Below the pieces are notes generated by a model that searched no databases, had not been told where the DNA came from, and saw only the letters and a program-made list of their open reading frames with translations. A stretch of 43,253 bases of DNA. It comes from a virus (Duplodnaviria; Heunggongvirae; Uroviricota; Caudoviricetes). The stretch covers positions 1-43,253 of IMG/VR virus record IMGVR_UViG_2778261009_000005, one strand, 5' to 3'. This document shows, piece after piece, positions 3,077 through 21,277 of the stretch; position 1 is the stretch's first letter; each line of letters begins with the position of its first letter. Position numbers and translations under genes: made by a program.

Positions 3077-4108
3077 CTAATCGCCATCTTCCAGCAGGCG
3101 CACCATTGCCCCCGTTTCACTATCCAGGTTACGAATGTAGTTCATGACAATATTTACGTTGGTCCAGCCACCAGCTTGCATGATCTCCGGTATTGAAACT
3201 CCGGCGCGGGCCATATCTCGCGCGGCTCCGACACGGGCACTGTGTCCAGACCAGGCCAGGTATCTCTGACCAGAGTCATCCTTAGCGCCGTAAATCAATC
3301 GATGAGTTGCTTCAAAAATCCCTTCCAGGGCGCGAGTTGATAGCTGGCTGGTAGCAGATGGCGCGGCAACACCATTTTTTCTGACACGGCAAAACAAGTA
3401 GTTATTCGGATCATCAGCCACACCAGAGACAGAAATCCATCGCTCGACCAGTTTAGTTACCCCCAGGCTAAGTGCCTTCTCTACACCTGCGGTGCTAACC
3501 AGCGTTTTCGTTCTGCCAATATGGATTAACATTCTCCCACCGTCAGTACGTGAGATATCTTTAACCCTGATCCTGGCAATTTCGGCTATACGTAACAGGG
3601 TGTTATAAGCAATCCCCAGAAATGCCAGATTACGTATATCCTGGCAGCGATCGCTATTTTCCATGAGTGAACGAACCTGGTCGAAATCAGTGCGTTCGAA
3701 CGCCAGTGCCTGTTTTGCACGTTCACCGGCATCAACGTTTTCTTTTCGGATCCGTCGCATGACCAGTGAAACAGCATTACTGTCACTTGGTCGTGGCAGC
3801 CCGGACCGACGATGAAGCATGTTTAGCTGGCCCAAATGTTGCTGGATAGTTTTTACTGCCAGACCGCGCGCCTGAAGATATAGAAGATAATCGCGAACAT
3901 CTTCAGGTTCTGCGGGAAACCATTTCCGGTTATTCAACTTGCACCATGCCGCCCACGACCGGCAAACGGACAGAAGCATTTTCCAGGTATGCTCAGAAAA
4001 CGCCTGGCGATCCCTGAACATGTCCATCAGATTCTTGCGAACCTCATCACTCGTTGCATCGACCGGTAATGCAGGCAAATTTTGGTGTACGGTCAGTAAA
4101 TTGGACAT
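3077..4108 (-). CDS. cre: Cre site-specific recombinase (tyrosine recombinase)
   Basis: 343-aa ORF MSNLLTVHQNLPALPVDATSDEVRKNLMDMFRDRQAFSEHTWKMLLSVCRSWAAWCKLNNRKWFPAEPEDVRDYLLYLQARGLAVKTIQQHLGQLNMLHRRSGLPRPSDSNAVSLVMRRIRKENVDAGERAKQALAFERTDFDQVRSLMENSDRCQDIRNLAFLGIAYNTLLRIAEIARIRVKDISRTDGGRMLIHIGRTKTLVSTAGVEKALSLGVTKLVERWISVSGVADDPNNYLFCRVRKNGVAAPSATSQLSTRALEGIFEATHRLIYGAKDDSGQRYLAWSGHSARVGAARDMARAGVSIPEIMQAGGWTNVNIVMNYIRNLDSETGAMVRLLEDGD matches P1 Cre as remembered. Confidence 0.97.
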   Translation of the reverse strand: MSNLLTVHQNLPALPVDATSDEVRKNLMDMFRDRQAFSEHTWKMLLSVCRSWAAWCKLNNRKWFPAEPEDVRDYLLYLQARGLAVKTIQQHLGQLNMLHRRSGLPRPSDSNAVSLVMRRIRKENVDAGERAKQALAFERTDFDQVRSLMENSDRCQDIRNLAFLGIAYNTLLRIAEIARIRVKDISRTDGGRMLIHIGRTKTLVSTAGVEKALSLGVTKLVERWISVSGVADDPNNYLFCRVRKNGVAAPSATSQLSTRALEGIFEATHRLIYGAKDDSGQRYLAWSGHSARVGAARDMARAGVSIPEIMQAGGWTNVNIVMNYIRNLDSETGAMVRLLEDGD

Positions 4109-11476: not shown

Positions 11477-13039
11477 ATGAAAATGACAAGTATTCAACAA
11501 CGTGCAGAGCTTCATCGTCAAATCTGGCAAATTGCTAACGATGTCAGGGGTTCGGTCGATGGATGGGATTTTAAGCAATACGTTCTGGGCGCACTTTTCT
11601 ACCGTTTTATCAGCGAAAATTTTTCCAGTTATATTGAAGCCGGTGATGACAGTATCTGTTATGCGAAACTGGATGACAGCGTAATTACTGATGACATTAA
11701 AGACGATGCCATCAAAACTAAAGGCTACTTCATCTACCCCAGTCAGCTTTTCTGCAACGTAGCTGCGAAAGCAAATACCAATGACAGACTGAACGCAGAT
11801 TTAAACAGCATCTTCGTTGCTATCGAAAGTTCTGCTTACGGCTACCCTTCAGAAGCAGACATCAAAGGTTTGTTTGCTGATTTCGATACCACCAGTAACC
11901 GCCTGGGTAACACCGTTAAAGATAAAAATGCCCGCCTGGCTGCGGTTCTGAAAGGGGTTGAAGGGTTAAAACTTGGTGACTTCAACGAACATCAGATTGA
12001 CCTGTTCGGTGATGCCTATGAGTTCCTGATTTCTAACTATGCGGCAAATGCCGGTAAGTCAGGCGGTGAGTTCTTTACACCGCAGCACGTCTCCAAGCTG
12101 ATTGCACAACTGGCTATGCACGGGCAGACCAACGTTAACAAAATCTACGACCCGGCAGCGGGTTCCGGCTCACTGTTGTTGCAGGCTAAAAAGCAGTTTG
12201 ATAACCATATCATCGAAGAAGGCTTTTTTGGTCAGGAAATCAACCATACAACCTATAACCTGGCACGTATGAACATGTTTTTGCACAACATCAACTACGA
12301 CAAGTTTGATATCAAGCTGGGTAATACACTGACTGAGCCACACTTCAGAGATGAAAAACCGTTTGATGCCATCGTTTCTAACCCGCCGTATTCGGTGAAA
12401 TGGATTGGCAGCGATGACCCGACGCTGATTAACGATGAACGTTTTGCCCCGGCTGGCGTCCTGGCCCCCAAATCCAAAGCTGACTTTGCGTTTGTACTAC
12501 ATGCGCTGAACTATCTTTCGGCCAAAGGTCGTGCTGCGATTGTCTGCTTCCCGGGTATTTTTTACCGTGGCGGCGCGGAGCAGAAAATCCGTCAGTATCT
12601 GGTCGATAATAACTATGTCGAAACCGTGATTTCACTGGCACCGAACCTGTTCTTTGGCACCACTATTGCTGTAAACATTCTGGTGCTGTCTAAACATAAA
12701 ACGGATACCAAAGTTCAGTTTATTGATGCCAGCGAACTGTTCAAAAAAGAAACCAACAACAATATCCTGACCGATGCCCATATCGAACAGATTATGCAGG
12801 TATTTGCCAGCAAGGAAGATGTTGCTCATCTGGCGAAATCTGTTGCGTTTGAGACTGTTGTCGCGAATGACTATAACCTGTCGGTGAGCAGCTATGTGGA
12901 AGCGAAAGATAACCGCGAAATTATCGATATCGGTGAGCTGAATGCAGAGCTGAAAACCACGGTCAGCAAAATCGACCAGTTGCGTAAAGATATTGATGCA
13001 ATTGTGGCTGAAATTGAAGGCTGCGAGGTGCAGAAATGA
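11477..13039 (+). CDS. hsdM: Type I restriction-modification methyltransferase subunit HsdM (N6-adenine)
   Basis: 520-aa [28 protein letters not shown]... with AdoMet motif and NPPY catalytic motif (VSNPPYS). Confidence 0.92.
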
Positions 13040-14241
13040 GCGAGATGAGTTATCTGGAAAAATTGCTGGATGGGGTTGAGGTTGAGTGGAAGACACTTGG
13101 GCAAACTTGCAAAATTGAAACAGGAAAGCTTAATGCGAATGCGGCTGTTGATGATGGAGAGTATATGTTCTTCACGACAGCCAAAGAGACAAGCAAAATT
13201 GATAAATTCCGCTGGGATACAGAGGCATTGCTGATTGCAGGCAATGCGAATGTTGGTGAGGTGAAGCATTACATCGGCAAGTTTGAGGCTTATCAGCGCA
13301 CCTATGTTCTGACAAATTTCGACGAAAATGTAAGTGTTAGATTTTTGTATTTTGTGCTTAGCCATAGCCTGAAGAAATATCTCGAGGAAAGAACAAATAG
13401 CGCGGCAATGACATATATCGTGCTATCAACCTTAGAGAATTTCCCTATCCCCATCCCCTGCCCGGATAATCCGGAAAAATCCCTTGCCATCCAGTCTGAA
13501 ATCGTTCGGATTCTGGATAAATTTACTGCACTTACCGCTGAGCTTACCGCTGAGCTTAACATGCGTAAAAAACAGTACAACTACTATCGCGACCAGTTGT
13601 TGAGTTTTAAAGATGGTGAGGTTGAGTGGAAGACTTTGGGGGAAATTGGAGATTTTACATATGGATATGCAGCCAAAGCCATGGATTCAGGAGATGCCCG
13701 TTTCGTGAGAATTACTGACATAAATAAAGACGGGAAGCTATCGAAAGAAAACCCAATGTACGTTGAATTAAATGAGGAAAATGAGAAATATACCTTAGAC
13801 AAAAATGATTTACTCATGGCAAGAACTGGGGCAACCTTTGGTAAAACAATGATTTTTGAAGAAGATTATCCAGCAGTATACGCTGGTTTTTTAATAAAGT
13901 TGAACCTAAATAAAACGATTATTAATGCCAAATATTACTGGCACTTTGCACAAAGTGATTTTTTTTGGGAACAGGCTAATAAATTAGTATCTGGTGGTGG
14001 GCAACCACAGTTTAATGCTAATGCACTGAAACAAGTCAGAGTACCTATTCCATACCCATCTCACCCTCAAAAATCTTTAGACGAACAGGGGCGTATTGTG
14101 GATATTCTGGATAAGTTTGATGCAATCACAGCTTCCATCACCGAAGGTCTCCCGCGTGAAATCGAGTTGCGCCAGAAACAATACGAGTACTATCGTGATT
14201 TACTGCTCAGTTTCCCAAAACCTGAAACTGTCAGTAATTAA
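13036..14241 (+). CDS. hsdS: Type I specificity subunit HsdS (Type IC, EcoR124-like)
   Basis: 401-aa ORF with two target-recognition domains each opening GEVEWKTLG, central TAELTAEL repeat and two conserved ILDKF...YYRD..LLSF regions; start overlaps the hsdM stop. Confidence 0.9.
13531..13557 (+). repeat. Tandem 12-bp repeat (ACCGCTGAGCTT x2, coding TAEL-TAEL) in hsdS central conserved region
   Basis: CTT-ACCGCTGAGCTT-ACCGCTGAGCTT-AAC read directly; the same repeat exists in EcoR124I/II hsdS, where copy number sets the recognition-site spacer length. Confidence 0.8.
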
Positions 14242-14362
14242 TTGACCATTATTACAGACCGGATCACCTTAACATCCGGTCTGTATATAGACTATTTTTT
14301 ACACGCCGGAAAGCACCCTTAACGCCCTTCCGGCCCTTGCCAGACGGCATAAAGGATGCGCT

Positions 14363-17300
14363 ATGACTCATCAGACACACACTATTGCTGAATCCAATAA
14401 CTTTATCGTCCTTGATAAGTACATCAACGCTGAGCCAACAGGCGACAGCTACCAGAGCGAATCGGACCTGGAACGTGAACTGATTCAGGACCTGCGGAAT
14501 CAGGGCTATGAATTTATATCCGTAAAATCTCAGTCGGCTATGCTGTCCAATGTTCGGGAACAGCTTCAGAGCCTCAATGGTGTGGTGTTTAATGACAGCG
14601 AGTGGCGGCGTTTCACGGAGCAGTATCTGGACAACCCGAGCGATGGCATTCTGGATAAGACCCGTAAAATCCATATCGACTATATTTGCGACTTTATTTT
14701 TGATGACGAGCGACTTGAGAACATCTATTTGATAGATAAAAAGAATCTCATGCGCAATAAGGTGCAGATTATCCAGCAGTTTGAACAGACGGGTTCTCAT
14801 GCTAACCGTTATGACGTCACGATCCTGGTTAATGGTTTACCGCTGGTGCAAATCGAACTAAAAAAACGCGGGGTGGCGATTCGTGAGGCTTTCAACCAGA
14901 TACATCGTTACAGTAAAGAGAGTTTTAACAGCGAAAATTCCCTGTTTAAGTATCTGCAACTGTTTGTCATTTCTAACGGCACCGATACCCGTTATTTTGC
15001 CAACACGACAAAGCGCGATAAAAACAGTTTTGACTTCACCATGAATTGGGCGAAATCAGACAACACGCTGATTAAAGACCTCAAAGACTTTACCGCTACC
15101 TTTTTCCAGAAACATACTCTGCTGAATGTTCTGGTGAACTACAGCGTTTTTGACAGTAGTCAGACGCTACTGGTGATGCGACCGTACCAGATTGCCGCCA
15201 CCGAGCGCATTCTGTGGAAAATTAAGAGTTCCTTTACAGCGAAGAACTGGTCAAAACCGGAAAGCGGTGGGTATATCTGGCACACTACCGGTTCTGGTAA
15301 AACCCTCACCAGCTTTAAAGCCGCGCGTCTGGCAACAGAGCTGGACTTTATTGATAAAGTCTTCTTTGTGGTCGACAGGAAAGACCTCGATTACCAGACC
15401 ATGAAGGAATATCAGCGTTTTTCGCCAGACAGCGTCAACGGCTCGGAAAATACCGCAGGCCTTAAACGAAATCTGGATAAGGACGATAACAAAATTATCG
15501 TCACTACTATTCAGAAACTTAATAACCTGATGAAAGCAGAAAGCGACCTGCCTGTATATAATCAGCAAGTGGTGTTTATATTTGATGAATGCCACCGCAG
15601 CCAGTTTGGAGAAGCGCAGAAAAACCTGAAGAAGAAATTCAAACGCTATTATCAGTTTGGTTTTACCGGCACACCTATTTTCCCGGAAAACGCCTTAGGC
15701 TCAGAAACGACCGCCAGCGTATTTGGTCGTGAATTGCATTCGTATGTAATTACCGATGCGATTCGTGATGAAAAAGTGCTCAAATTCAAGGTGGACTATA
15801 ACGATGTGCGGCCACAGTTTAAGTCTTTAGAGACAGAAACTGACGAGAAAAAACTAAGTGCGGCTGAAAATCAGCAGGCGTTTCTTCATCCCATGCGTAT
15901 ACAGGAAATTACGCAATATATTCTGAATAACTTCCGCCAGAAGACGCACCGTACTTTCCCTGGCGCAAAAGGTTTTAATGCTATGTTGGCAGTGAGCAGC
16001 GTGGATGCTGCAAAAGCCTATTACGCGGCGTTTAAACGGTTACAAGAGGAAGCCGCTAATAAATCTGCAACTTATAAACCGCTGCGTGTTGCGACAATCT
16101 TCTCCTTTGCCGCTAATGAAGAACAAAATGCCATTGGTGAAATTTCCGATGAAACTTTTGATACCAGCGCAATGGACAGCAGTGCTAAAGAGTTTCTTGA
16201 CGCTGCAATTCGTGAGTATAACAGCTATTTTAAAACTAACTTCAGCACCGACGGTAACGGTTTTCAGAACTACTATCGCGATTTAGCCCAACGGGTTAAA
16301 AATCAGGATATCGATCTGTTAATTGTCGTGGGGATGTTTTTAACTGGCTTCGATGCTCCAACATTGAACACGCTATTCGTCGATAAAAACCTGCGTTTTC
16401 ACGGCTTGATGCAGGCATTTTCCCGCACCAACCGTATTTATGATGCAACTAAAACCTTCGGTAATATCGTCACTTTCCGGGATCTGGAACGCTCAACTAT
16501 TGATGCCATAACGCTGTTTGGTGACAAAAACACCAAAAATGTGGTTTTAGAAAAGAGTTATGCAGAGTATATGGAAGGCTTTACTGATGCTGCCACTGGT
16601 GAAGCTAAGCGCGGCTTTATGGCAGTAGTTTCAGAACTGGAACAACGGTTCCCTGACCCTGCCAGTATTGAAAGTGAAAAAGAGAAGAAAGACTTCGTTA
16701 AACTGTTTGGTGAATACCTGCGTGCCGAGAACATCCTGCAAAACTATGATGAATTTGCCACGCTGAAAGCCCTGCAACAAATCGATCTTAGCGATCCTGT
16801 TGCGGTAGAAAAATTCAAAGCAGAACATTATGTGGATGATGAAAAGTTCGCTGAATTGCAAACGATTCGTCTCCCTGCTGAACGCAAGATTCAGGATTAT
16901 CGTTCTGCCTATAACGATATTCGTGACTGGCAGCGCCGCGAGAAAGAAGCTGATAAAAAAGAAAAATCAACCACTGACTGGGATGACGTGGTTTTTGAGG
17001 TCGATTTGCTGAAGTCTCAGGAAATAAACCTGGATTATATCCTTGGACTGATTTTCGAACACAACAGACAAAATAAAGGCAAGGGCGAAATGATCGAAGA
17101 GGTCAAACGCTTAATTCGTTCAAGCCTGGGGAACCGGGCGAAAGAGGGCCTGGTGGTCGATTTTATTCAGCAAACGAACCTGGATGATTTACCGGATAAA
17201 GCCAGCATCATTGACGCATTCTTTACGTTTGCTCAACGCGAACAGCAACGTGAAGCAGAAGCATTGATAAAAGAAGAAAATCTCAATGAAGATGCAGCAA

Positions 17301-17479
17301 AACGCTATATTCGCACGTCTTTAAAACGCGAATATGCCACCGAAAATGGCACAGAATTAAACGAAACATTACCAAAACTTAGTCCATTGAATCCGCAATA
17401 TAAAACGAAAAAACAGGCAGTTTTCCAGAAAATCGTCTCGTTTATTGAGAAGTTTAAAGGCGTAGGCGGAAAAATATAG
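14363..17479 (+). CDS. hsdR: Type I restriction endonuclease/translocase subunit HsdR
   Basis: 1038-aa ORF with helicase motifs TGSGKT and DECH and an N-terminal nuclease region; own ribosome-binding site AAAGGA. Confidence 0.92.
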
Positions 17480-17558
17480 CCCAATTCGTGTTTTTCTTGC
17501 GGGTTCTTAATTAAACCCGCAAGAGACCGTGGGGTTCCAAATGGCTAATATACTCCCC

Positions 17559-17645
17559 TTATCCATGAGCGACGATGCCGCCAAAAGTGATAGAGAACAA
17601 CCAGAAATAGATCGCGGCCATAATGATTTTGAATGCCGTGTTCAT
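17559..17645 (-). CDS. Candidate 28-aa hydrophobic peptide
   Basis: MNTAFKIIMAAIYFWLFSITFGGIVAHG with AGGAG 9 nt upstream of the ATG; below the ORF-track size cutoff; unverified. Confidence 0.3.
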   Translation of the reverse strand: MNTAFKIIMAAIYFWLFSITFGGIVAHG

Positions 17646-17673
17646 ATTTTCAGCTCCTGTGATTGATTGGATA

Positions 17674-17704
17674 CATGCCGCGCCTTGCGGCATGTTTTTA
17701 TTTT
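17674..17704 (+). terminator. Intrinsic terminator (plus strand) downstream of hsdR
   Basis: CATGCCGC-gcctt-GCGGCATG followed by TTTTTATTTT. Confidence 0.65.
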
Positions 17705-17727
17705 CACTTTCTCTGTTTTAAATATCA

Positions 17728-17744
17728 AGATTTATTAGAGCAAT
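17728..17744 (-). promoter_or_regulatory. C1 operator-like site
   Basis: Minus strand ATTGCTCTAATAAATCT, 16/17 match. Confidence 0.6.
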
Positions 17745-18250
17745 TATTGTTGATGAAGAAGCGTGTTTTCATACTCCATGACCATTAACGTAAGCACGCC
17801 GTGACGCCTGAAAACACGCGCCACTTCAATCTTATCTTCCAGCGCGAACGCAATTTTGCTTAGACCAATTTTCTTAAGGAGATCAATCTTTGCTGGACCG
17901 TCATTTCTGTCATCGGTGGCGGGACGCATAGATAGCAAAGGCTCTGCCCCGTTTGTTACGTACTTCCGCAGCCAGGCTCGTGTTTTATCCCTTGCGATCT
18001 CACAGCGCCCGGTTACAAACCAGACCGTGTAAACGTTAAATAACTGGCGCACCATATCAATAACTGGAGTGATGGGAGTATCGGTGTCACAGGCGAGATT
18101 AAACTCGTTCCAGTCCTTTGTTAATGCACCTTTACCTGGTGGCGGAAGCAAATGCAGTCTGTCTTCAGTTGCCTCTGATATTGTTCCATCAATATCAACT
18201 ATGACGATATACGGACGTTCCTGGTGTGCGTGTTTATTGAAAATACTCAA
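17744..18250 (-). CDS. HAD-superfamily phosphatase-like protein
   Basis: 168-aa ORF with DxDGT motif (IVIVDIDGTIS) typical of HAD/PNK-type phosphatases; TTG start with GAGGAGG ribosome-binding site. Confidence 0.5.
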   Translation of the reverse strand: MSIFNKHAHQERPYIVIVDIDGTISEATEDRLHLLPPPGKGALTKDWNEFNLACDTDTPITPVIDMVRQLFNVYTVWFVTGRCEIARDKTRAWLRKYVTNGAEPLLSMRPATDDRNDGPAKIDLLKKIGLSKIAFALEDKIEVARVFRRHGVLTLMVMEYENTLLHQQ

Positions 18251-18268
18251 ATGCCCTCCTCATTGGAC

Positions 18269-18303
18269 GAAAAAAATGCTGGTGGGCGCACTCCACCAGC
18301 ATT
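18269..18303 (-). terminator. Intrinsic terminator (minus strand) after the 420-aa gene
   Basis: 11-bp stem AATGCTGGTGG/CCACCAGCATT, followed on the minus strand by T6. Confidence 0.6.
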
Positions 18304-18322
18304 AAAAGTGACACTGTAACTG

Positions 18323-19585
18323 TCAGCGAACGTAAATAGTGCCGCCGTTCTCTTTTTCCCATGCATTGCTACGTGCATAGCAAACATCGAGAAGTCTTCT
18401 TGCCGCTGTTTCCTCTAAACCCAATTCGACAACCAACTGCTCATGACGGCGGGTAACCACATCAAACAGGGTATGCAGCCCTTTAGCTGCCAGATCATCA
18501 ATAAATTCCGGTTCGAACGGCAGCTCTGCATCTGCCAACATAACCTCTTGCGCCCACTCGACACGGCGGACCAGTTCCGGGCGGCGGCTTTCCATCTCTT
18601 TACAGATCAATTCATGGAAGAACTCTACCCAACCTTCCGGCTGGAACTCGCGGAAAATGGCCAGCGGCTGGAAGTTTGGCATCAACCATTCGTTGATTCG
18701 GATATCAATGGCATAGCCCATGTCGCAGCAGAACTGATAAGCAAAGTCCAGCTTAGAAACGATATAAGGACGCTCGTTATTGAACTCTTTAGGCGATGAG
18801 ATCCCATAAGCCAGGAGGCGCGGGAAGAAGGAGATTTGCCCTAACGTCGGATGAAGTTTGCTTGCAGGGAAACGGCGCTCAGTAATGCCATACATTTCCT
18901 TCTTGAGCGTCGCAAATTTGGCATTCTCATTAACCAGCGCGGTAACCTCTGCTTTTTTATTAGCAAATGCCACGCGCGCTTCGCTTGCATCTTTAATAGT
19001 TTTTTTGAGCTGTTGGTTAAGGTCGGCGACCTGCTTACGCAGTTCCTGTCGCTCGCTTTTAGCTTTGTTATAGCGTTTCTCAAGGTTAAAAGGATCAAGT
19101 TTCATGATCTCTTTATATTGAGATTTTAGCGTTGAAATCTGTGAGTTCCGCAGTTCAACCATCGCGGTCATTTCATTGAGTTTTGTTTCCAGCTCAATGC
19201 TTATACGTTCGGCATTATCAGCACGCTGGTTGGCGTCATGCGTCGCATCGTCGATCGCGTCCTGTTGCTGGCGTTTCAAATGTTCAATTTGCAGCTGAAG
19301 CTCTTCAATTTCTTTACCCTTCAGACCGAGATCCAACTGCATATTTTCAGCTGCATCTACCAGGGAGTTATGGCTATCAGCTTCTGCGTTATAAACATCA
19401 ATAAGCTGTGCGTGAAGCATCTCCGCTGACTGAACCGCATTATCAAAAAAACGTGCTGTGAGGTCATCACAACTAACGCGGCGTTGCGCGGCCCGGATGT
19501 TCTGGATAATGGCCGGGATACCGGCATTCAGGACATCAGGGATAGATACATTTTCGATTGATTGGTTTTGTGCTGAAGTGCTCAT
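18323..19585 (-). CDS. Hypothetical protein, coiled-coil N-terminal half plus C-terminal globular domain
   Basis: 420-aa ORF; heptad-rich region about residues 80-230; no nucleotide-binding motif recognised; start 1 nt after the stop of the upstream 72-aa ORF. Confidence 0.55.
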   Translation of the reverse strand: MSTSAQNQSIENVSIPDVLNAGIPAIIQNIRAAQRRVSCDDLTARFFDNAVQSAEMLHAQLIDVYNAEADSHNSLVDAAENMQLDLGLKGKEIEELQLQIEHLKRQQQDAIDDATHDANQRADNAERISIELETKLNEMTAMVELRNSQISTLKSQYKEIMKLDPFNLEKRYNKAKSERQELRKQVADLNQQLKKTIKDASEARVAFANKKAEVTALVNENAKFATLKKEMYGITERRFPASKLHPTLGQISFFPRLLAYGISSPKEFNNERPYIVSKLDFAYQFCCDMGYAIDIRINEWLMPNFQPLAIFREFQPEGWVEFFHELICKEMESRRPELVRRVEWAQEVMLADAELPFEPEFIDDLAAKGLHTLFDVVTRRHEQLVVELGLEETAARRLLDVCYARSNAWEKENGGTIYVR

Positions 19586-19586
19586 T

Positions 19587-19805
19587 TCAAAGTTCCGTAT
19601 TAGCTTGTGCTTCGGTCATTTTTCCTAAGTATGAAGGAGGAAGGACTACGCAATTTGTATCCAGTCCCTCACCTATGGCAGCCTGTAAAATTCTGGCTAA
19701 GGTGAGTCTCTTGTTGCGATACCTGGTGATGACATGCCTGATACCGCCGGTCGGCGTAACAAAGGCGATCAGCCAGTAGTGATATTTCCGTCGGAATGGC
19801 CACAT
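19587..19805 (-). CDS. Hypothetical small protein (72 aa), first gene of a C1-controlled operon
   Basis: AAGGTG ribosome-binding site 5 nt upstream; operator 14 bp upstream; stop adjacent to the start of the 420-aa gene. Confidence 0.4.
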   Translation of the reverse strand: MWPFRRKYHYWLIAFVTPTGGIRHVITRYRNKRLTLARILQAAIGEGLDTNCVVLPPSYLGKMTEAQANTEL

Positions 19806-19819
19806 AGTGCACCTTGTAG

Positions 19820-19836
19820 ATTGCTCTAATAAAAAA
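19820..19836 (+). promoter_or_regulatory. C1 operator-like site
   Basis: ATTGCTCTAATAAAAAA, 14/17 match. Confidence 0.55.
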
Positions 19837-19860
19837 CGTGATGAGTGTACATCACGTTTT
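19837..19860. terminator. Bidirectional hairpin terminator between two convergent C1 operator-like sites
   Basis: CGTGATG-agtgta-CATCACG flanked by an A-run and a T-run. Confidence 0.5.
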
Positions 19861-19868
19861 AAAAAAAT

Positions 19869-19885
19869 TGAATTATTAGAGCAAT
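19869..19885 (-). promoter_or_regulatory. C1 operator-like site
   Basis: Minus strand ATTGCTCTAATAATTCA, 14/17 match. Confidence 0.5.
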
Positions 19886-19886
19886 A

Positions 19887-20588
19887 TTATTCTGATTCTC
19901 GCTCAAAAAATGAGCTGATAAGGGGAAGCCAATCCTCTGACACTTCGCGAGGTCGCGGTTTGCCGTGGAAAAAGATTATTCGGCAGTCTTTTGGTAATGC
20001 CCCATTCCCCCTGGAGTAACGCGCGCTCGCATATTTTGAACCTGGTTCCACAACATCGGCCTTGTAACTTACAAACCATCCTGGATACAGATCCTGAAAT
20101 GCTGGTGTATCATCGCCCATAACCTTTCGTAAGAACCCCTGGTCACCCCAGCACTCAGTAGTGACACAACGAGAAATCCAACCTTCCGGATCTTGCCAGA
20201 ATGAACTCCAGATATGCGCTTTAACACTATTTGGTATCCACAGGGCACCGCTGCCACGATATTGTGGATGGTAAAAATCCCTAAGCATGGTGAAGCTGGT
20301 TGGTGGATGCTCTAGGATTGGGCGTATATCACCGGCAATAACCGTGTCCAAATCCAGATAGAACAGATCATCGGTTATATCCGGTCGGAACAACTCGATT
20401 TTCGCCCACCAGCCACGGCACTTTTGCCACTGGTTGATCAATGGGACAACTTTGACGCCAGGTACATGTAAACGCTTCAGGTCTGTCAGGCAAATAATTT
20501 CATAGCCTTTTGGCAGTTGATTAACCAGCCACTGCACATCGGAAGCGTTATAGTCACCACCAGAGCGAAAAACTAAAGCAATCTTCAT
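19887..20588 (-). CDS. Hypothetical protein, possible nucleotide-sugar transferase-like fold
   Basis: 233-aa ORF with a DLD motif; assignment weak. Confidence 0.45.
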
Positions 20589-21277
20589 GCTGCACCATCA
20601 CCTTTCACTTTCATCAATGTCAGGTTTCCGCAAAATACGGCACTAGTGTCGATATACTGCTGATTCCAGAATGTCTTCGGGCTTTTCACCGGAGTGTGAC
20701 CAAAGATAAAACGATCTGCGCCCGAAATTTCGCCACCAATATCATCCATCGAATCACTGATACGCTCGCGCGCCCAGACAACGTTGAAAAGCGGCACCTC
20801 CTTACCGAATTGGTATTCATTATCCGGATAGTCGGCATGGGCTATAACGATAGTTTCTTGCCCCGTGTTCAACTCAATGATATAGGGCAGACGCTTTACC
20901 AGCTCCACCAGCGCCCAGGCTAATATTTCCTGATCAGTGTCCAGCATGAAGAACCATTGTCCGCCATTCATTAGCCAGTTATTCACGTTGCCATCTGGAC
21001 TTAACGCATCAATCATCAGCCGCTCATGGTTCCCCATCACTGCCCTGAACCAGGGCATCTGCAATAGTTCCAGACATTCGACATTTTCAGTACCGCGATC
21101 GATAAGGTCGCCGACCAATATCAGTAAATCCTGCGCCGGGTCAAAATCCACACGATGGAGTTCGGACATCAGTCTGGTGTAGCAACCATGCAGATCACCA
21201 ACAACCCAGACATTCCTGTATTTGGTACCGTCGATACGGTGATAAATTGTGGGTGCCATCATGTATTCTTCAGCCAT
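20585..21277 (-). CDS. ppp: Ser/Thr protein phosphatase, lambda-PPase family (P1 Ppp-like)
   Basis: 230-aa ORF with metallophosphatase motifs GDLHG, GDLIDRG and GNHE. Confidence 0.85.

Follow-up and report, generated by a model that had tools for sequence, protein, structure and literature searches.

What do a 72-residue protein and a 420-residue protein, encoded together behind phage repressor operators and beside a restriction-modification module, contribute to the element that carries them? The question arises in a stretch of viral DNA of 43,253 nucleotides (hereafter the window), and sequence comparison supplies the first part of the answer: both belong to a P1-type (Punavirus) phage-plasmid, where they make up the pmgR-pmgS operon, called shtA-shtB in P7. 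Over 100% of a 1.8-kb query, nucleotide identity is 98.9-99.8% to 19 phage records that include P1, P7 and SJ46, with values of 98.9% for P1 and 99.3% for P7 (GenBank AF234172 and AF503408). PmgR matches its P1 and P7 counterparts at 100% identity, PmgS differs from P1 PmgS at 3 of its 420 residues, and a comparison of feature tables finds the gene order pmgQ-pmgR-pmgS-pap kept with respect to P1 and P7. The operon is already known, having been annotated since the P1 genome record two decades ago, and the PmgR phenotype was published in 2022 (PMC9024508). Taken as a whole, the locus is in our judgement probably best explained as a P1-type pmgR-pmgS operon that is silenced by C1, with PmgR serving particle production and PmgS acting as an accessory. 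The features of the operon are as follows.

19587-19805, minus strand: pmgR (P7 shtA), 72 aa, matching PHROG 3177
18323-19585, minus strand: pmgS (P7 shtB), 420 aa, matching PHROG 1660 (E 1.6e-195)
19810-19815, minus strand: Shine-Dalgarno-like AAGGTG of pmgR, from sequence inspection
19869-19885, minus strand: C1 operator Op86a (OpmgRa), ATTGCTCTAATAATTCA, a consensus match and a protein_bind feature in P1 AF234172, with an equivalent in P7
19820-19836, plus strand: C1 operator Op86b (OpmgRb), ATTGCTCTAATAAAAAA, a consensus match annotated in P1 and P7
19856-19884, minus strand: predicted sigma-70 promoter PpmgR (TTGCTC, 17-nt spacer, TAAAAC), transferred by coordinates from the P1 annotation
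19833-19860, no strand assigned: hairpin AAAACGTGATG-6 nt-CATCACGTTTT, bordered on either side by A-runs and T-runs, terminator-like in both directions
18268-18303, minus strand: intrinsic terminator of pmgR-pmgS, an 11-bp stem followed by TTTTTTT, identical in P1

The first-pass annotation of this DNA had described a translationally coupled gene pair. The pair is indeed present as two minus-strand reading frames, and because a single base separates the pmgR stop from the pmgS start (TGA-A-ATG), translation of pmgS is probably coupled to that of pmgR. The proposal that the two genes form a bicistronic unit under C1 control appears to be borne out by the operator annotation of P1 and P7 and by the consensus matches. 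Op86b has three mismatches to the C1 consensus, and the window holds 14 matches of this kind against 0.28 expected by chance. The two operators face in opposite directions and together make a perfect inverted repeat of 13 nt; neither differs between the window, P1 and P7. Where the first-pass annotation had placed the operator at 19820-19836 over the promoter, the operator itself is real, but according to the P1 record it is Op86a that covers the predicted -35; Op86b comes after the predicted -10, 14 nt short of the pmgR start codon. Both candidate promoters are weak, agreeing with the consensus at 7 of 12 positions, and a consensus promoter scan picked up no sigma-70 promoter around the operators. 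A box search for Lpa-type -22 late-promoter boxes found none near pmgR, and nothing relevant was found in the literature on Op86 and on shtA/shtB.

Two predicted transcription barriers complete the regulatory picture. Both the bidirectional hairpin and the strong terminator that were said to bracket the genes exist, but the hairpin lies between Op86a and Op86b rather than upstream. Its 11-nt arms (19833-19843 and 19850-19860) give -13.4 kcal/mol on either strand, and with the operator arms included the structure reaches -26.9 kcal/mol (z = -9.95); it probably terminates the pmgN-pmgQ transcript rather than belonging to the pmgR mRNA. The downstream terminator, whose stem and T-run span 18275-18303, has six G-C pairs in the stem and a folding energy of -18.1 kcal/mol. 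In a lysogen, C1 monomers would sit on two inverted 17-bp operators and keep the operon silent, Op86a covering the -35 of the weak sigma-70 promoter and Op86b lying just past the predicted start, while the hairpin between them would block transcripts that arrive from pmgN-pmgQ upstream or on the other strand. Inactivation of C1 would then yield a bicistronic pmgR-pmgS mRNA, its expression hinging on the loss of C1, that would end at the strong terminator at 18268-18303.

This arrangement reaches well beyond P1 and P7. Paired inverted operator-like repeats are conserved upstream of pmgR in four diverged P1-like elements, whose PmgS identities are 70%, 53%, 27% and about 25%, and in the element L059 the same variant, ATTGTTCTAATAA, occupies both operator-like arms. 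The conservation of these paired operators is a new observation, and because they persist at 25-27% PmgS identity, direct control of the operon by the immunity repressor appears to be ancestral. Such direct control is unusual for a gene that, like pmgR, is needed late in particle assembly.

That need is documented for P1, in which deletion of pmgR is lethal and abolishes infectious particles, and complementation in trans restores them (PMC9024508), which speaks against a polar effect or a mutation elsewhere. By electron microscopy, tails and incomplete heads accumulate unjoined in P1 without pmgR, and PmgR was not detected in virions (PMC9024508). The first-pass annotation had thought a defence, anti-defence or host-takeover role conceivable, and had named clear homology to a known P1 structural or replication protein as grounds for dropping it. 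The genes turn out to be the annotated P1 pmgR and pmgS, and experiments show that P1 cannot complete its virions without PmgR (PMC9024508), so that those grounds are given. It is PmgR, and not PmgS, that particles require: with pmgS deleted, P1 plates normally and its restriction on EcoA, EcoB and EcoK hosts is normal, CRISPRi knock-down finds pmgS non-essential with normal plaques, and the virion-proteome paper (PMC9024508) mentions PmgS in neither its main text nor its tables.

The more difficult part of the question is therefore what PmgS does, and its predicted architecture provides the first lead. From its N-terminus the protein comprises one helix, then a pair of long helices, a small beta/alpha middle domain and, at the C-terminus, an (HhH)2 domain; the last three elements map as follows.

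18890-19465, minus strand: two long helices, residues 41-232 (41-160 and 168-232), with a break at a conserved LDP motif (163-165)
18545-18874, minus strand: middle domain, residues 238-347, three strands then helices, with the motifs RINEWLxP and HPxLxxRxEWA
18350-18523, minus strand: (HhH)2 domain, residues 355-412, in P1 and close relatives degenerate at the second G-h-G hairpin

The AF2 model (pLDDT 87.9) agrees with the long helical N-terminal half that had been described from the sequence. The same description had a C-terminal domain that was unassigned and free of a P-loop, and in this it was half right: PmgS has no Walker A motif ([AG]xxxxGK[ST]), but the domain can be assigned. It is an (HhH)2 domain of the type found at the N-terminus of RAD51 and in the RNA polymerase alpha-CTD, an assignment that is new. 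The PmgS family profile matches the RAD51 N-terminal domain with E 1.4e-7 and the alpha-CTD with E 2.7e-6, and among 66 family members Pfam HHH_5 matches 18 and RNA_pol_A_CTD 14; P1-type PmgS on its own falls below the HHH_5 threshold, and neither window protein alone has a significant Pfam match. Foldseek of the PmgS model against the BFVD viral structures gave nothing at E <= 0.001 and no structural-protein match; phmmer of PmgS against PDB sequences gave coiled-coil noise only.

Within the five-helix fold, which contains two helix-hairpin-helix units, the first unit is kept in window PmgS (KGLHTLFDV), while the second G-h-G hairpin, present in most family members, is replaced in window PmgS and its close relatives (LGLEE, YDLTP, HSLQP). 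Because this second hairpin is lost and HHH_5 is not reached, DNA binding by P1 PmgS is uncertain, and with the hairpin replaced the domain may in the P1 clade bind protein rather than DNA. Overall, PmgS has the appearance of an elongated coiled-coil accessory whose (HhH)2 domain would bind DNA or a partner that is itself on DNA. The coiled-coil arms account for its apparent kinship to SMC, Rad50, JetC and LmuB, which is confined to those arms, compositional, and scores 13-23 bits; an SMC/Rad50-type ATPase was rejected, with NCBIfam scores of 15-19 bits against cut-offs of 300-1000 bits and neither a Walker A motif nor an ATPase head.

Is PmgS nevertheless a true morphogenesis protein that works with PmgR as a head scaffold, a head-size factor or, as P7 ShtB is labelled, in sheath contraction? 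Labels to this effect stand on PmgS in P1, in P7 ("sheath contraction"), in RefSeq and in PHROG 1660, and pmgS is co-transcribed, and probably translationally coupled, with a virion-completion gene. Throughout the P1 lineage, pmgS and that gene always occur together, in a block once termed morphogenetic, and a long, helical protein that ends in a small helical domain is loosely reminiscent of phage scaffolding proteins such as P22 gp8. We nonetheless consider a morphogenetic PmgS improbable. The designation pmg stands for no more than "putative morphogenetic function" (PMC9024508), the normal plaques after deletion and knock-down, the silence of the virion-proteome paper and the fold search without a structural-protein match all speak against it, and relatives of PmgS lie near RecT, YqaJ, Dam and integrase, far from head and tail genes and without PmgR. 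The head-morphogenesis label, which RefSeq and PHROGs attach to this protein on thousands of P1-like phage-plasmids, derives from map position alone and clashes with the knockout data, the domain content and the genomic contexts of relatives. We conclude that PmgS most likely forms part of neither capsid nor sheath and that the label "PmgS-like head morphogenesis" is probably wrong, although PmgS may have a virion-related role that is dispensable in laboratory conditions, and the prophage neighbourhood on which a non-structural reading leans is circumstantial evidence.

The family comprises 121 clusters at 50% identity, and loci of PmgS relatives were found with two sub-alignments of a 66-sequence alignment. 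One prophage locus reads RecT, a 362-aa gene and the PmgS-like gene, then Dam, RdgC and integrase; in a second the PmgS-like gene is followed by Dam and integrase; and a third runs YqaJ/gp5.9, FtsK-gamma, PmgS-like gene, Dam and integrase. The genes immediately upstream hit YqaJ, RecT, Rv2179c-like, DUF3799 or DUF2303 in 27 of 46 cases (from 23 viral loci), a sample whose loci are not independent because related prophage lineages are among them. The three prophages had also hinted at an association of PmgS-like genes with Dam methylase, which was dropped when a wider sample held Dam in 1 of 69 downstream genes, whereas the association with recombination genes upstream persisted. Non-P1 relatives of PmgS lie between recombination genes and integrase, not in structural modules, and the location of the family outside P1-like phages, without PmgR and directly after RecT/YqaJ-type recombination genes in early regions of prophages that carry an integrase, is a new observation. 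These contexts favour a role for PmgS by itself as a non-structural accessory that may act early, and the (HhH)2 domain together with the recurrent RecT/YqaJ adjacency offers a starting point for testing what this widespread protein does.

Another possibility is that PmgR and PmgS both act on phage DNA, in recombination-dependent replication, concatemer processing or the initiation of packaging, and that the unjoined heads and tails of the pmgR deletion are in truth unfilled proheads like those of a pacA mutant. The tails and incomplete heads were indeed reported beside a pacA packaging control that likewise gave proheads and free tails, PmgR went undetected in virions (PMC9024508), PmgS has an (HhH)2 domain and relatives that follow RecT or YqaJ, and the pmgR-pmgS pairing is kept across P1-like phages down to 25-27% identity. 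Yet in that study pmgR was classed with pmgC, a predicted head-tail adaptor, rather than with pacA (PMC9024508), PmgR has no detectable homology to DNA-handling proteins (Pfam, PHROG and NCBIfam), and the HhH domain of the P1 clade is degenerate. Because PmgS is dispensable and PmgR is not, the two cannot be obligate partners, and we regard a joint action on DNA as possible but unlikely. An equally tentative proposal is that the PmgS family is an accessory of phage single-strand-annealing recombination modules that was recruited in the P1 lineage, with the lineage-specific PmgR, into a step of DNA maturation or packaging under repressor control. The modules meant are RecT with YqaJ, DUF3799 or Rv2179c-like nucleases, and PmgS, with its coiled coil and (HhH)2 domain, would tether or organise DNA. 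Were PmgS such a recombination accessory, the essential "head completion" defect of pmgR would really lie on the DNA side.

The location of the operon invites a further reading, in which both genes, or just pmgS, would form a module for defence, anti-defence or host takeover that is switched on early beside the restriction-modification system. The neighbours are as first described, with a type I hsdMSR at 11477-17479 and a HAD_PNKP phosphatase at 17744-18250. The operon is under direct repressor control without a recognisable late promoter, PmgS is non-essential, and its relatives occupy prophage early-left regions of the kind typical for accessory and anti-host genes (a YqaJ-gp5.9 fusion, methyltransferases); a fold like that of the alpha-CTD or the NusA acidic repeat could also serve as a protein-interaction decoy. 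The searches gave this idea no positive support. Nothing rose above coiled-coil noise for PmgS in PADLOC or NCBIfam, the PADLOC-DB matches being sub-threshold ones to LmuB coiled-coil stretches at 18 bits, and PADLOC gave zero hits for PmgR. The pmgS deletion left restriction on type I hosts normal, the phenotype of PmgR is one of morphogenesis, and the hsd adjacency is specific to the present variant and missing from P1 and P7. We therefore hold a defence-related role to be very improbable, and return to PmgS as an accessory beside a particle-completing PmgR.

How does this operon compare with known systems? P1 immI (Op51, c4 antisense RNA, icd and ant) is likewise a short operon under a C1 operator, and the earlier judgement that the present locus is not immI stands: the 14-nt gap between operator and start leaves no room for an RNA gene, Rfam has no match in the region and finds three tRNAs only over the whole window, icd and ant are unlinked to PmgR and PmgS in protein searches, and the P1 record names the pair pmgR and pmgS. 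The operons of P1 (AF234172) and P7 (AF503408), by comparison, share the genes, their order, the operators, the hairpin, the terminator and the flanking pmgQ and pap, the spacer from Op86a to the hairpin differing by two base changes. The elements diverge past pap, where the present one carries a type IC hsdMSR, P1 carries pmgT through humD (pmgT-pmgV), and P7 has other genes at the site occupied by hsd.

For the PmgS C-terminus, the (HhH)2 relatives are the N-terminal domain of RAD51 and RAD51C, the alpha-CTD, the NusA acidic repeat and the AF1548 C-terminal domain; in PmgS the domain is joined to a long coiled coil and a middle domain, unlike the recombinase or polymerase core of those proteins. 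The PmgS-like genes of lambdoid-type prophages in Aeromonas and other Proteobacteria encode proteins of about 360-470 aa with the same three-part architecture (profile E-values down to 1e-97). They differ from P1 in having no PmgR partner, PmgR relatives being found beside PmgS in P1-like contigs only, and in keeping the canonical KG[IMLF]G HhH hairpin that the P1 clade has replaced, and they stand after YqaJ, DUF3799, RecT or Rv2179c-like genes and before Dam, excisionase and integrase.

The pmgR-pmgS operon picked out by the first-pass annotation is real, with its open reading frames, operators, hairpin, terminator and neighbours all present. Its genes and the next one downstream are:

19587-19805, minus strand: pmgR, 72-aa ORF, by ORF reading
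18323-19585, minus strand: pmgS, 420-aa ORF, by ORF reading
17744-18250: HAD_PNKP-type phosphatase gene, next after the terminator

The pmgR stop and pmgS start are one base apart (TGA-A-ATG). As had been claimed, a strong intrinsic terminator lies 3' of pmgS (11-bp stem with 6 G-C pairs, then seven T, -18.1 kcal/mol), and past the phosphatase gene comes a type I R-M system. It consists of hsdM, hsdS and hsdR, runs convergently and has a C-terminal domain of EcoR124 type. A megablast search with 18200-20000 matched 19 phage records, P1, P7, SJ46 and RCS47 among them, each at 100% query cover and 98.4-99.8% identity. PmgR does not differ from the P1 or P7 protein, and PmgS departs from that of P1 at residues 2, 367 and 407. 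The P1 record (AF234172) annotates both genes as pmgR and pmgS, "putative morphogenetic function", and the P7 record annotates them as shtA and shtB together with the same two operators. Given these near-identical records and their annotation, the feature is already known.

The control region contains the following elements:

19869-19885, minus strand: C1 operator Op86a (OpmgRa), ATTGCTCTAATAATTCA, by consensus match and P1/P7 annotation
19856-19884 (equivalent positions): sigma-70 promoter PpmgR, predicted in the P1 record
19833-19860: hairpin with 11-nt arms, enclosed by the operator repeat
19820-19836, plus strand: C1 operator Op86b (OpmgRb), ATTGCTCTAATAAAAAA, by consensus match and P1/P7 annotation

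The window holds 14 matches to the C1-operator consensus against 0.28 expected by chance. In AF234172, OpmgRa (older name Op86a) carries the remark "controls expression of pmgR and pmgS"; the older name of OpmgRb is Op86b. Lying in opposite orientations, the operators make up a perfect inverted repeat of 13 nt. The hairpin that it encloses has a folding energy of -13.4 kcal/mol whichever strand is folded, or of -26.9 kcal/mol (z = -9.95) with the operator arms included. Two bases of the 121-bp control region differ from P1 and P7, both in spacer. In the P1 annotation, the predicted promoter has its -35 (TTGCTC) overlapped by Op86a and its -10 (TAAAAC) followed downstream by Op86b, at roughly +13 to +29. 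By that prediction, the earlier claim of an operator over the promoter holds for Op86a and not for 19820-19836, the site it had named. The bidirectional hairpin, flanked on each side by A-runs and T-runs, sits between the operators rather than upstream. The predicted PpmgR is weak (7/12 consensus positions) and was not recovered by a consensus promoter scan; no Lpa-type late-promoter -22 box was found near pmgR. If the prediction is right, transcription would start inside the hairpin, which would therefore lie outside the pmgR mRNA and would instead end the transcript arriving from pmgN-pmgQ, as well as any antisense RNA.

In the most likely mechanism, C1 at both operators would silence this weak promoter in the lysogen, as the P1 annotation implies, and the central hairpin would shield the unit from read-through. 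Loss of C1 would then yield a bicistronic mRNA ending at the strong terminator. PmgR, in small amounts, serves a late step giving joinable heads, as has been shown in P1. Both genes are among the 21 most conserved in a survey of 77 P1-like phage-plasmids, and inverted pairs of operator-like repeats are retained 5' of pmgR in diverged P1-like elements:

L059: PmgS identity 70%, arms 12 nt, spacer 40 nt, hairpin between arms
L058: PmgS identity 53%, arms 13 nt, spacer 38 nt
L003: PmgS identity 27%, arms 18 nt (AAGATACTAATTTAT), spacer 17 nt
L006: PmgS identity about 25%, arms 22 nt, spacer 20 nt

Since paired repeats are kept in these four elements, direct repressor control of pmgR-pmgS appears ancestral in the lineage. 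In L059 (2700-2763), a Salmonella element, both arms carry the same C-to-T change (variant TTGTTCTAATAA / ATTGTTCTAATAA), which fits operators co-varying with a variant C1 repressor specificity.

Several other loci deserve mention. The complete type IC (EcoR124-like) hsdM-hsdS-hsdR set (11477-17479) replaces the P1 segment humD through pmgT, and its closest hsd-bearing phage record is vB_EcoM-673R5 (97% identity, 91% of query). P1 retains ~220 bp (window 17555-17774) annotated as 96-98% identical to sequence 3' of the EcoDXXI and R124/3 hsdR genes, so that its arrangement looks as if it had arisen by deletion from an ancestor with hsd. In the window, the predicted pmgT promoters and Op88 (17673-17744) face the 3' end of hsdR, which is convergent with them, and because the hairpin at 17673-17695 has terminator features on the plus strand (hsdR) only, C1-controlled antisense transcription could enter hsdR after induction. 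Directly downstream of Op88/OpmgT (17728-17744) is a 28-aa hydrophobic ORF (17577-17663, minus strand, MNTAFKIIMAAIYFWLFSITFGGIVAHG) with an AGGAGC Shine-Dalgarno, at whose position AF234172 annotates no CDS. The peptide is unchanged in P1 and P7, all nucleotide differences being synonymous, and is a candidate C1-controlled small peptide of membrane or toxin-like type. Next to cre (3077-4108) there is an insertion with Tn3-family resolvase and class A beta-lactamase genes (477-2113; matching plasmids have the latter as blaTEM-1). E. coli plasmids, NZ_CP122640 for example (98.5% identity), share this junction; by its gene content the element is a resistance-carrying P1-like phage-plasmid. At 19887-22445 lie pmgQ, ppp, pmgP and pmgO. 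Relatives of pmgO give faint MptE-like (Maf-type) matches, pmgQ matches a PHROG glycosyltransferase family, and a CTP_transf_3 cytidylyltransferase occurs near pmgS in distant P1-like relatives; this set, which takes in L003 12588-13352 and L014 8460-9227, suggests a candidate nucleotide-sugar modification module. ARAGORN calls an 87-nt tRNA-Ser (anticodon tga; 32562-32648, minus strand) that falls below the gathering threshold of the Rfam tRNA model; the other three window tRNAs (Met/CAT, Thr, Asn) are called by both.

For PmgS itself, a word-indexed search found P1-like relatives only (identities of 53% or more, and a single one of 27%), and a profile run against 1.84 billion cluster representatives found 121 clusters of the same length and layout. 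A few entries (P0002, P0016, P0005) join PmgS to a C5 methyltransferase fragment (480 aa), a metallophosphoesterase (463 aa) or extra sequence (531 aa), and probably stem from P1-like contigs that are rearranged or mis-called. An AlphaFold2 model built on a 66-sequence alignment (pLDDT 87.9) has residues 15-36 in one helix and residues 41-160 and 168-232 in long ones, interrupted at a conserved LDP motif, followed by a three-stranded beta unit with helices (238-347) and a five-helix C-terminal domain (359-412). The middle domain carries the motifs RINEWLxP and HPxLxxRxEWA and gave no match in fold searches. The second helix-hairpin-helix hairpin has the canonical KG[IMLF]G in most family members; in P1 and close relatives its place is taken by LGLEE, YDLTP or HSLQP, so that DNA binding by P1 PmgS is uncertain. 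PmgS has no Walker A motif, in agreement with the first reading.

In-frame deletions of pmg and upf genes were made by Gonzales et al. 2022 (PMC9024508). Deletion of pmgR left < 100 PFU/mL, and its product was absent from the detected virion proteome and had no HHpred relative; without pmgS, virions were infectious and were restricted normally on EcoA, EcoB and EcoK hosts, and the main text and tables do not mention PmgS. A CRISPRi screen scored both genes as non-essential, and listed pmgR among known essential genes that knock-down missed (PMC10695390). That PmgS has a role in defence, anti-defence or takeover, as first suggested from its neighbours, is very unlikely: PADLOC and NCBIfam searches returned coiled-coil noise only, restriction is normal in the deletion, and homology to known P1 proteins, here pmgR and pmgS, is what the first-pass annotation had itself set against that role. 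Its views on regulation and on the operon not being immI survive. That PmgR and PmgS act jointly in DNA maturation or packaging is rather unlikely, given that infectious virions form in the pmgS deletion; on that reading the pmgR phenotype would be akin to that of the pacA control, where proheads and free tails are likewise produced.

Genomic context bears on the same question. Distant P1-like contigs that carry giant DarB-like genes (L003, L006, L007 and L014) keep the block pmgO-pmgP-pmgQ-pmgR-pmgS in synteny; L003 has PmgS at 27% and PmgR at 36% identity, and in L014 a HAD_PNKP gene also follows pmgS. A PmgR HMM run over 57 loci found relatives in these four, always directly 5' of the PmgS-like gene, and none in the rest. 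Prophages outside P1-like elements carry the PmgS-like gene alone, in early regions. The order is KilA-N, DUF3799, RecT, a 362-aa gene, PmgS-like gene, Dam, RdgC, integrase in Aeromonas; repressor, a 217-aa gene, PmgS-like gene, a 74-aa gene, Dam, integrase in a second locus; and YqaJ-gp5.9 fusion, FtsK-gamma, DUF3268, PmgS-like gene, Dam, excisionase, integrase in a third. Among the 46 genes directly 5' (two per locus, 23 non-redundant IMG/VR loci that are not phylogenetically independent) were YqaJ (9), RecT (8), Rv2179c-like exonuclease (4), DUF3799 (4) and DUF2303 (2). Genes on the 3' side vary, with integrase, excisionase and several kinds of methyltransferase among them, and most lack a Pfam match. 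This neighbourhood, circumstantial as it is, is far easier to reconcile with an accessory protein of early DNA metabolism than with a component of capsid or sheath, and a true head or sheath factor, the role its database labels give, is distinctly unlikely for a gene whose deletion leaves infectious virions. We modestly favour PmgS being a dispensable coiled-coil and (HhH)2 protein that probably acts on DNA or a DNA-bound partner. What is new beyond the P1 and P7 records is the probable mis-annotation of PmgS and its testable link to recombination modules.
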